NCBI GenBank assembly: GCA_964629685.1 | Contig: CAZVTT010000001.1 | Span: forward strand, 17,877-81,876 | Direction of reading: 5' to 3' | DNA from: an uncultured Gammaproteobacteria bacterium | GTDB taxonomy: Bacteria > Patescibacteriota > Microgenomatia > UBA10105 > UBA927 | DNA length: 64,000 bases | Shown: in pieces, positions 19,706 through 22,700 of the stretch | Position numbering within the stretch: the stretch's first letter is position 1 | Layout: each line of letters begins with the position of its first letter | Program-made: the position numbers and the translations under genes | The notes under the pieces: generated by a model | The model's database searches: none | Seen by the model: the letters and a program-made list of their open reading frames with translations, nothing else | Told to the model about the DNA's origin: nothing

Positions 19706-22700
19706 GTTCTCCGCAACTTCGACCGATTAGTACAGGTAGGCTAAGCACGTTACCGTGCGTACACCGTCTGCCTATCAACCCAGTCATCTTCTGGGGGTCT
19801 AATAACGATTCCTCATCTTGGGGTGGGCTTGGTACTTGAGATGCTTTCAGCACTTATCCCAACCAGATCTAGCTACCCTGCGCTGCCGGTTTTCCGACAA
19901 CAGGCACACCAGGGATCTGTCCCTCCCGGTCCTCTCGTACTAGGGAGAGCTCCCCTCAAGAATCGAACGCTCACACAGGATAGAGACCGAACTGTCTCAC
20001 GACGTTCTGAACCCAGCTCGCGTACCCTTTTAACCGGCGAACAGCCGGACCCTTGGGACCTTCTCCAGCCCCAGGATAGGATGAGCCGACATCGCTGTCG
20101 ATTTTCTCCTGTTACCAGGAGGTTCTGACTATACCTTCACCCCGCCATCCTTCATATATATGATGAAGGCGGGGGCTAGCCGTTTGATAGATATATTAGA
20201 GAAATCTATCTCACCATGCACCGTATGGTACATGGATCAGTCGATACGGATCGAGAAAATGTTAAAAACATTTCCGAGACCCTCGGTATTACCCTTCACC
20301 ATTCCGTTTCGAGCGGAACGTTGTTAGGGGTTCACCGATTTGAGCTAGTCAATTCCATTCCGATAGCGCAATGGGTTACATGCCTATCGGAACCAGACTT
20401 ACATATTACTATATAGGCGCCCCGATGCATTATGCATAAGGTGCCAAACCGCCTCGTCGATATGGACTCTCGGAAGCGATCAGCCTGTTATCCCCGGGGT
20501 AGCTTTTATCCGTTAAGCCCGGTCCCTCCCACGAGGGATCCGAGGATCACTAACACCGACTTTCGTCTCTGCTCGACTTGTAGGTCTCGCAGTCAAGCTG
20601 GCTTATTGCGTTTGCACGACACGTCCCGGTTTCCATTCGGGATTAGCCAACCTTTGTACGCCTCCGTTACGATTTTGGAGGCAACCTCCCCAGTTAAACT
20701 GCCCACCAGACAGTGTCCTTCACCTAGATTTTTATGTAGGTGTAAGTTAGATTTCTTCATTTCGAAGAGTGGTATTCCATTGTTGACCGAAGTCTCCCAC
20801 CTATTCTCGACAGTCAAAATAAAGTCCTCAATGCCAAGTTACAGTAAAGCTCCACGGGGTCTTTTTGTCCATGTGTGAGTAGGCCGCATCTTCACAGCCA
20901 TTTCAATTTCGCCGGGTAATGGTTCAAGACAGTCATTATGTCGTTCTACCTTTCGTGCGGGTCGGAACTTGCCCGACAAGGAATTTCGCTACCATAGAAC
21001 AGTTATAGTTACTGCTGCCGTTCACCGGAGCTTGAGTAACAGCCTTGATATAATCGCAACTACCACTCTTAACTTACCGGCACTGGGCAGGTGTCAGCCC
21101 CTATACATTGCTTTTCAGCTTCGCAGAGACCTGTGTTTTAGTTAAACAGTCGCATAATGTCATTAACTGTGCCCCACCTTACGATGGGGAAGGCATCTCC
21201 CAAAGGTTACGCCTAGCTTTTGTTGCCGAGTTCCTTGAACCATGATCGCCCGCTTGCCTTGGTATACTCTACCAGCGCACCTGTGTCGGTTTGCGGTACG
21301 GATAAAAAGTGCTTCTCAATGAGACTTTTCCCGAAAGCAGAACTATCTCTGTTGTCCGCTTCTTGCGATTTGGACTTCTATTCGTATCTCGTATTAAACA
21401 TGATCGCGGATTTGCCTGCGTTCACTATTTCGATACTTAATCGCCGACGAATCGACGATGAGACCTATCCTCCTTTGTCATCCCCTTGAGTCTTTATTAA
21501 CACTTCTCAGTAACGGAATATCAACCGTTTATACATCGACTTACGCCACCTTGCGGTGGCCTCAGCTTAGATCCGACTTACCCGAAGACGACGAACGTTG
21601 CTTCGGAAACCTTGCGCATTCGGCATGGAAGATTCTCACTTCCAAACGCTACTCATACCGGCATTCTCACTTCTTATCGCTCCACACCGCCTTACGGCGT
21701 ATGCTTCACGGCAATAAGAACGCTCCCCTACCACTCATATCTCGCTTACGCTCGATATAAATCTCTGTCTTCGGCAGTATGCTTGAGCCTCGATCATTTT
21801 CGGCGCCACGGTTTTCATCCAGTGCGCTGTTACGCGTTCTTTAAAAGGTGGCTGCTTCTAAGCCAACTTCCTGGGTGTCTTAAAACCATGACTTCCTTAA
21901 CCACTTAGCATACATTTAGAGGCCTTAGACGGGAATCTGGGTTGTTTCCCTTTAGACACACGAGCTTAGCCCCGCATGTCTGACTGGCCGAGTACCAACG
22001 AAAGTATTCGGAGTTTGATTGATGGTGATACCTTGCGATACCAAAATCATTCAGTGCTCTACCCCTCCGTTGGGATAATCGACCGCTATACCAAAATATA
22101 TTTCGGGGAGAACCAGCTATCTCCAAGTTCGATAGGCATATTACCCCTAACCACAAGTCATCTCACAGTTTTGCAACACTGACGAGTTCGGGCCTCCCTC
22201 TCGCTTTCGCGAGAGTTCACCCTGCTCATGGTTAGCTCACCTGGTTTCGGGTCTATCGCCTGCTGCTAATCGCCCAATTAGGGCTCGCTCTCACTACGCC
22301 TCCGCCAGTTCTACTGGCTTAGACTCGCAACAAACGGTAACTCACCGGTTCATTCTTCAATAGGCACGATATCACCCACGGCTTACGCCGGGGCTCTATC
22401 TGTTTGTTAGTTGACAATTTCAGGTACTATTTCATTCCCCTTCCGGGGTACTTTTCACCTTTCCCTCACGGTACTTGTTCACTATCGGTGCGCATTTGTA
22501 TTTAGCCTTGGATCGTGGTTGACCCAGATTCCCACAGGACCTTCGTGTCCCATAGTACTTAGGAACTCTTTAGAGGGGATATACATTTCGAATACGAGGC
22601 TGTCACTCCCTTTGGCCACCTTTTCCACGGTGTTCTTCTATATATATCCACATCTCATATTAAGAGCCCTGCAACCCCACCCCTTGCGGGATGGTTTAGG

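Follow-up and report, generated by a model that had tools for sequence, protein, structure and literature searches.

We examined a 64,000-nucleotide stretch of contig CAZVTT010000001.1, referred to at its full length as the window, which carries a ribosomal RNA (rRNA) operon in the order tRNA-Ala(UGC)-23S-5S (19428-23348). Neither a 16S gene nor a tRNA-Ile gene was found in the 64-kb window. The gene for the bacterial large subunit (LSU) rRNA is complete at 19706..22981 on the minus strand, where it spans 3276 nucleotides (nt) against the 2925 positions of the Rfam model and scores 2336.7 bits. It contains a single insertion, which is very probably a group I intron without an open reading frame (ORF). 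The features of the locus are the following.

19428..19544: 5S rRNA (Rfam)
19706..22981, minus strand: 23S rRNA gene, host of the intron; exons of 2932 nt in total and the 344-nt intron (Rfam LSU_rRNA_bacteria, model 1-2925)
20095..20438, minus strand: very probable ORF-less group I intron at site L2500, after E. coli U2500 (exon junctions, fold z-score, covariation)
23275..23348: tRNA-Ala(UGC) (Rfam)

A preliminary description of this DNA had proposed that a group I intron of 344 nt splits a universally contiguous sequence of the peptidyl-transferase loop between U2500 and C2501. Alignment of the exons to the LSU model confirmed the site, and the split proved correct to the base. In a local cmscan, the 5' piece of the LSU extended to 20443 (model position 2522) and the 3' piece started from 20094 (model position 2527), and the nucleotides ACCU (20442..20439) complete the 5' exon. 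The 344-nt insertion at 20438..20095 (−) separates E. coli U2500 from C2501, and the junction reads ...GGCACCU/UAUGCAUAAUGCAUCGGGGCGCC...AAAAUCGACAG/CGAUGUCGGCUC, with the final U of the 5' exon and the final G of the insertion that had been pointed out as splice-site nucleotides. Shifted borders were rejected, as the universal CACCU-CGAUG junction (CACCUCGAUG) would be lost. Removal of the insertion leaves 3276 - 344 = 2932 nt, the normal gene length that had been anticipated, and the G-rich guide suspected near the 5' end could be located as GGGCGCC at intron positions 17-23. The predicted absence of a homing endonuclease was likewise upheld; inside the insertion there is no ORF longer than 34 amino acids (aa) on the RNA strand or 66 aa on the opposite strand, and neither of these has a Pfam match. 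The calculated fold of the insertion has an energy of -124.4 kcal/mol (z = -6.4), and none of 100 shuffled sequences was equally stable.

Relatives were sought in a set of genomes, one for each GTDB species, that was scanned for 23S genes in which U2500 is followed by a base other than C; this gave at least 120 matching stretches. Among the matches listed, about 60 were complete insertions bounded by CGATGTCGGCT, and nearly all of these possess the internal guide sequence (IGS) ATCGGGGYGC near their start and the S element A[AG]G[AG]TATAGTC about 40 nt before their end. The closest among the matches listed were those at loci L097 (Woesebacteria), L019 (Gottesmanbacteria), L034 and L089, with 67-71% identity to the window intron, and metagenome contigs added L122 and L133, identified with nhmmer. 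A gapped pattern, TATCGACTGAN{12,42}GAGATA, was also run on metagenome and viral contigs. The matches listed were mostly due to chance; among them nhmmer retained L122, L133 and L229, as well as L142 at a different rRNA site, and no viral contig was genuine. A blastn search against 50,697 phage records gave no match. Seven L2500 introns, including L097, L019, L034, L089, L122 and L133, make up the alignment A3. Eleven relatives were compared by anchor-based dissection; a MAFFT alignment (A2) had misaligned the three that do not have the P2.1 hairpin.

The secondary structure was built by hand and its coordinates were verified. In this manual model, every canonical group I element, with paired segments (P) and joining segments (J), could be placed in the insertion. 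The placed helices make up a P4-P6 domain and a P3-P7-P8 domain with a P3/P7 pseudoknot.

20439..20445 (−): 5' exon strand of P1, GGCACCU; pairs with intron 17-23 at 6/7 positions, with U2500 (20439) in a U·G wobble at the 5' splice site
20423..20428 (−): internal guide, P10 part, GCAUCG (intron 11-16); directly abuts the P1 part
20416..20422 (−): internal guide, P1 part, GGGCGCC (intron 17-23)
20089..20094 (−): 3' exon strand of P10, CGAUGU (C2501-U2506); 6 base pairs (bp) with GCAUCG
20400..20415 (−): P2 hairpin, 6 bp, GUAA (GNRA) tetraloop; compensatory change in 5/6 pairs, 100% paired
20358..20392 (−): P2.1 hairpin with the conserved loop UGUAACCCAUU (dissection, alignment, RNAalifold); missing in L101, L004 and L085
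20344..20348 (−): 5' strand of P3, CUAGC; long-range pairing with 20180..20176
20283..20338 (−): P4 (UCGGUG/UACCGA), A-rich J4/5 and P5-P5a; compensation of P4 in L229, compensatory change in 2/4 P5 pairs
20248..20282 (−): P6 hairpin, long and AU-rich; position of the ORF in relatives (dissection and alignment)
20238..20242 (−): 5' strand of P7, GACUG, after J6/7 GUAUC; partner UAGUC at 20131..20127, no variation in any relative
20214..20235 (−): P7.1 hairpin (intron 204-225); forms in 11/11 relatives with differing sequences
20186..20210 (−): P7.2 hairpin (intron 229-253); 93.9% paired, two compensatory pairs
20176..20180 (−): 3' strand of P3, GCUAG (covariation)
20140..20174 (−): P8 hairpin; 3/5 basal pairs compensatory, 100% paired
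20127..20139 (−): J8/7 and 3' strand of P7, together the classic S element (UGAAGGUA-UAGUC); aligns with gaUgAAGAUAUAGUC of the Rfam Intron_gpI consensus
20106..20121 (−): P9 hairpin, 6 bp, GUAA tetraloop; compensatory change in 5/6 pairs
20095 (−): terminal guanosine (omega G), G344, at the predicted 3' splice site (sequence)

The six modelled pairs of P1, including the U·G pair, are kept in 7/7 relatives, and 97.6% of the P10 cells are paired in the relatives. The junctions are AAC/UAA in J4/5 and UCAAA in J3/4, and the J8/7-P7 sequence UGAAGGUAUAGUC aligns to the Rfam Intron_gpI consensus.

The manual structure was applied to A3. As a result, 92.8% of the pair cells were paired, compared with 38-43% when the partners were slid by 1-3 columns. 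Compensatory change was observed in 26 of the 75 pairs against 11.4 ± 2.3 in shuffles, and none of the 500 shuffles reached the observed value. RNAalifold, to which no structure had been supplied, recovered P2, P2.1, P3, P4, P5, P6, P7.2, P8 and P9, and covariation was present in P3, P4, P5, P6 and P8. Anchor-based dissection revealed one architecture common to 11/11 relatives. Here P3 takes six strand combinations, four of which are compensatory with respect to the commonest and one of which is a G·U wobble (CUAGC/GCUAG, CUAGU/ACUAG, CUAAC/GUUAG, CUGGC/GCCAG, UCAGC/GCUGA and the G·U form CUAGC/GCUGG). P4 of L229 is ACGGAG/UUCCGU, compensatory to UCGGUG/UACCGA. The group I identity put forward in the preliminary description is supported by the manual P3-P8 core, by covariation at the same-site homologues and by the RNAalifold consensus.

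The alignments also hinted at possible contacts outside the modelled helices. The P2.1 loop UGUAACCCAUU (20370-20380 (−), intron 59-69) hardly varies among the five closest relatives, although the stem beneath it does, a conservation that suggests a tertiary contact. In A3, the L2 GNRA loop (GUAA or GUGA; 20400-20415) has a third base that tracks the first P8 pair (C-G or U-A; 20140-20174) in 5/7 relatives, which hints at a tetraloop-receptor contact between L2 and P8, but the relation is broken in L133. With RNAalifold we also noticed that the intron end UCGACA (20096-20101) is complementary to UGUCGG in the 3' exon (+4 to +9; 20086-20091) on the minus strand. A hairpin of these two segments could enclose the 3' splice site in such a model; there is no covariation evidence for it, because all of the columns are invariant. 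UCGAC of the intron end recurs at J6/7-P7 (20240-20244), and the ending CGACAG is found in several L2500 subfamilies.

Several points weigh against the group I interpretation or parts of it. A search with Rfam Intron_gpI (RF00028), which had been proposed as the check, was informative only in part. In the 431 nt searched, it matched the J8/7-P7-P9 region (20105..20239) at an E value of 1.2e-7; the match is confined to the 3' part, and its score of 35.8 bits lies below the gathering threshold of 50. An Rfam search of the whole window at gathering thresholds returned 23S, 5S and tRNA, with the intron absent, and the intron was detected by Rfam only in a permissive local search. P1 is mismatched (A·C) at exon position -4. 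The relatives do not vary in P1, P7 or most of P4, and these helices are for this reason consistent with the model but uninformative. Two arguments underlie the tentative assignment to subgroup IA or IA3, the presence of P7.1/P7.2 and an analogy to L2500 introns from the literature. Finally, splicing of the window intron, and self-splicing above all, is a prediction made from its sequence.

Concerning the Rfam score, the L2500 introns of the relatives are also below the threshold, and other introns in the same genes pass it. RF00028 has been reported to be insensitive to IA3 and IB4 introns where subtype models succeeded (PMC6125680), which matches its behaviour towards the L2500 introns here. 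We thus treat the sub-threshold score as a limit of the model and not of the element.

P7.1 and P7.2 are located between P7 and P3' and are both present in 11/11 relatives. Extra hairpins at this position are a hallmark of subgroup IA, and Michel and Westhof reportedly described P7.1/P7.2 as an IA trait in 1990. By this analogy the window intron is IA-like and probably belongs to IA3. Taking the above into account, we estimate a probability of about 0.9 that 20438..20095 (−) is a genuine ORF-less group I intron of this type, inserted at 23S U2500/C2501 in a bacterium of the candidate phyla radiation (CPR) type.

We considered the possibility that the intron has decayed, so that it does not self-splice and depends on host proteins, or lies in a non-functional rRNA copy. 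The missing maturase or endonuclease ORF, the sub-threshold Rfam score and the A·C mismatch in P1 would all agree with decay, and, as 64 kb of the genome is in view, a second, intron-less rRNA operon is possible. On the other hand, the core helices, J8/7, the U·G wobble, the omega G and both GNRA loops are all intact, and the exons constitute a full-length, high-scoring 23S. Compensatory change preserves the fold in relatives whose identity is only 67-71%, an indication of purifying selection on the structure. The window's proteins are encoded on a contig of 953,690 bp, and genomes of such a size usually harbour a single rRNA operon, a further count against decay; we regard this explanation as highly unlikely.

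Explanations other than a group I intron, or other than a native one, are less probable still. Intervening sequences (IVSs) of the RNase III type, which are excised without ligation and leave the 23S fragmented, are known in bacterial 23S genes including those of CPR (PMC11270868), and the relative L085 carries a 23S_rRNA_IVP gene within its intron. IVSs are located at helix tips, at other 23S sites (23IS2 and 23IS4), and not at U2500/C2501 in the catalytic core (PMC11270868). In addition, the window element displays a multi-helix group I fold with guides for both exons instead of one long RNase III stem, and we consider it extremely improbable that it is an IVS. An artefact of assembly or binning, in which a chimeric join placed a foreign intron into the rRNA gene, has equally little to recommend it. 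rRNA genes are indeed difficult in metagenome assembly, and an independent Logan contig (L001) shares about 300 nt of this 23S with 100% identity, the intron lying outside the overlap. Nevertheless, the two junctions coincide to the base with a single phosphodiester bond, and the guides match the flanking exons. Homologous introns occupy the same site in at least seven other assemblies, which, where long enough, share the tRNA-23S-5S layout and the neighbourhood of the S1 gene.

If the element is a group I intron as we propose, the model predicts the following splicing route. The precursor would fold into a core of P3-P8 and P4-P6. The guide GGGCGCC would pair with the exon end GGCACCU to form P1 and present U2500 in the U·G wobble, and an external guanosine bound in P7 would attack after U2500. 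The adjoining guide GCAUCG would form P10 with CGAUGU in the 3' exon, G344 at the intron end would occupy the G site, and U2500 would be ligated to C2501. In the ligated exons ...GGCACCU would be joined to CGAUGUCGG, which would restore the universal CACCUCGAUG and free the intron. Catalysis and precise splicing would be expected on this basis.

As for mobility, neither a LAGLIDADG homologue nor a second copy of the intron was found in the 64-kb window, and with longest ORFs of 34 and 66 aa the intron does not encode a homing endonuclease. Since there is no endonuclease gene, the intron is unable to home alone. ORFs are present inside P6 of same-site relatives with the same core, namely LAGLIDADG_2 in L004 (8e-45) and 23S_rRNA_IVP in L085 (6e-26), and the AU-rich P6 hairpin of the window intron corresponds to the position of these ORFs. 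Most simply, a homing intron lineage would be represented here in an ORF-less form, which may now be inherited vertically, or be mobilised in trans by the endonuclease of related introns.

The window intron belongs to a class of introns already described in CPR bacteria. In CPR 23S genes, 433 group I introns have been reported, 222 of them ORF-less, clustered around the peptidyl-transferase centre (Tsurumaki et al. 2024, PMC11270868). ORF-bearing and ORF-less introns share sites there, and according to Brown et al. 2015, as cited in the same paper, such CPR insertions are removed from transcripts (PMC11270868). The window intron resembles these introns in its gene, in its position in domain V around the peptidyl-transferase centre and, as far as can be discerned, in its host group. 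It also recalls the finding that ORF-less forms at shared sites stand beside LAGLIDADG forms that are highly similar outside the ORF (PMC11270868). The sites are numbered 23IS6-14 in the figures of that study, and U2500 may be among them; neither the window intron nor its P2.1-bearing 'UAUGCA...CGACAG' subfamily is named there.

Among archaeal introns, IA3.2 and IA3.3 reside at LSU/2500, and P6 of IA3.1, at LSU/2593, contains a LAGLIDADG gene (Nawrocki et al. 2018, PMC6125680). Compared by description, IA3.2 and IA3.3 have the identical insertion site and an IA-type architecture, and IA3.1 resembles the relative L004 in the LAGLIDADG gene in P6. The archaeal LSU/2500 introns differ from the window intron in their hosts and in their length of about 800 nt (PMC6125680). 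The chloroplast rrl gene of Floydiella terrestris contains an intron at site 2500, Ft.rrl.6, of 381 bp and subgroup IB (PMC2997540). It shares with the window intron the site, a homologous (organellar) gene and a similar size, but is classed as IB, whereas an IA trait, the hairpins P7.1/P7.2 between P7 and P3', is present in the window intron.

Classical bacterial 23S introns are situated at other sites, L1917, L1931 and L1951, and their hosts are not CPR bacteria. Group I introns of this kind occur in Thermotoga, Simkania, Coxiella burnetii and cyanobacteria, as cited in PMC11270868 and PMC1995217. As far as these citing papers describe them, they are like the window intron in that they are group I introns, lie in domains IV-V and are related to organellar introns.

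We noticed that many L2500 introns do not end in the G that is supposedly universal. Of the 60 complete insertions among the matches listed, 37 have A as their last base, and in 35 of these the ending is ...GUA. Shifted borders were rejected for the ...GUA-ending class as well. The A-ending members have a normal IGS, P7 and S element. They include L006, L067 (NZ_CP084737.1), L114 (NZ_CP064834.1), L003, L022 and about 30 more loci. Of these, L067 and L114 are from Coxiella-like endosymbionts with complete genomes. The ordinary omega G is present in members with the same core and the ending ...CGACAG, among them the subfamily of the window intron. Accurate ligation without a terminal G is known from ND5-717 in hexacoral mitochondria (PMC6545197). 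If the A-ending members do splice precisely, they would represent natural bacterial exon ligation without omega G, with the window intron as a canonical comparator. It is possible, though unlikely in our estimation, that the window intron is part of a large, not-yet-named U2500 group I lineage that is widespread in bacteria, being found mostly in Patescibacteria and also in Coxiella-like endosymbionts and in metagenome-assembled genomes (MAGs) labelled as other phyla. On a weaker reading, splicing of an intron that lacks an endonuclease and lies in the catalytic centre might serve as a checkpoint of ribosome maturation in these small-genome bacteria.

The existing picture of group I introns and of CPR rRNA genes is unchanged by these results, and their main practical value lies in annotation. 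A generic Rfam scan at curated thresholds misses this intron subtype; therefore CPR 23S genes seem over-long or split, and primers or probes spanning U2500 fail. The window also provides a clean, minimal 344-nt ORF-less L2500 intron with well-supported helices, a possible substrate for testing self-splicing in CPR.

Further group I introns were observed elsewhere in the 23S genes of the relatives (L089, 552-804; L034, 3289-3502; L133, 2231-2454), and second nhmmer matches occurred in L122 (5075-5190) and L133 (3945-4090). Some of these other-site introns exceed the Rfam threshold. At about 2245-2442 (−), L142 contains an intron with the same P4/P7/P7.2 core motifs, following ...CCUUGUCUGGUAA near E. 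coli position 1931; the core family therefore extends beyond site 2500.

A Microgenomates-type CPR bacterium is the most likely host. The 23S exons share 83-86% identity with the 23S of Gottesmanbacteria and Woesebacteria MAGs, and the tRNA-23S-5S layout is also found in L019, L097, L034 and L122. The contig of 953,690 bp is of a size usual for a CPR genome. The neighbouring S1 protein is 71-74% identical to homologues encoded a few kb from the 23S in L019 and L097, and RadA of the window is 53% identical to that in L004. The rRNA operon is flanked by weak GDSL-lipase-like ORFs at 18297-19439 (+) and 27734-28720 (+), the former running 12 nt into the end of the 5S gene on the opposite strand. 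An 1115-aa protein with weak PEP-CTERM-integral/VIT-like matches is encoded immediately upstream of the tRNA, at 23719-27066 (−). Finally, the records for L034, L085, L092, L070 and L091 are titled 'uncultured Gammaproteobacteria', yet their 23S and S1 sequences are closest to the Microgenomates type, and judging from these sequences their taxonomic labels may be wrong.

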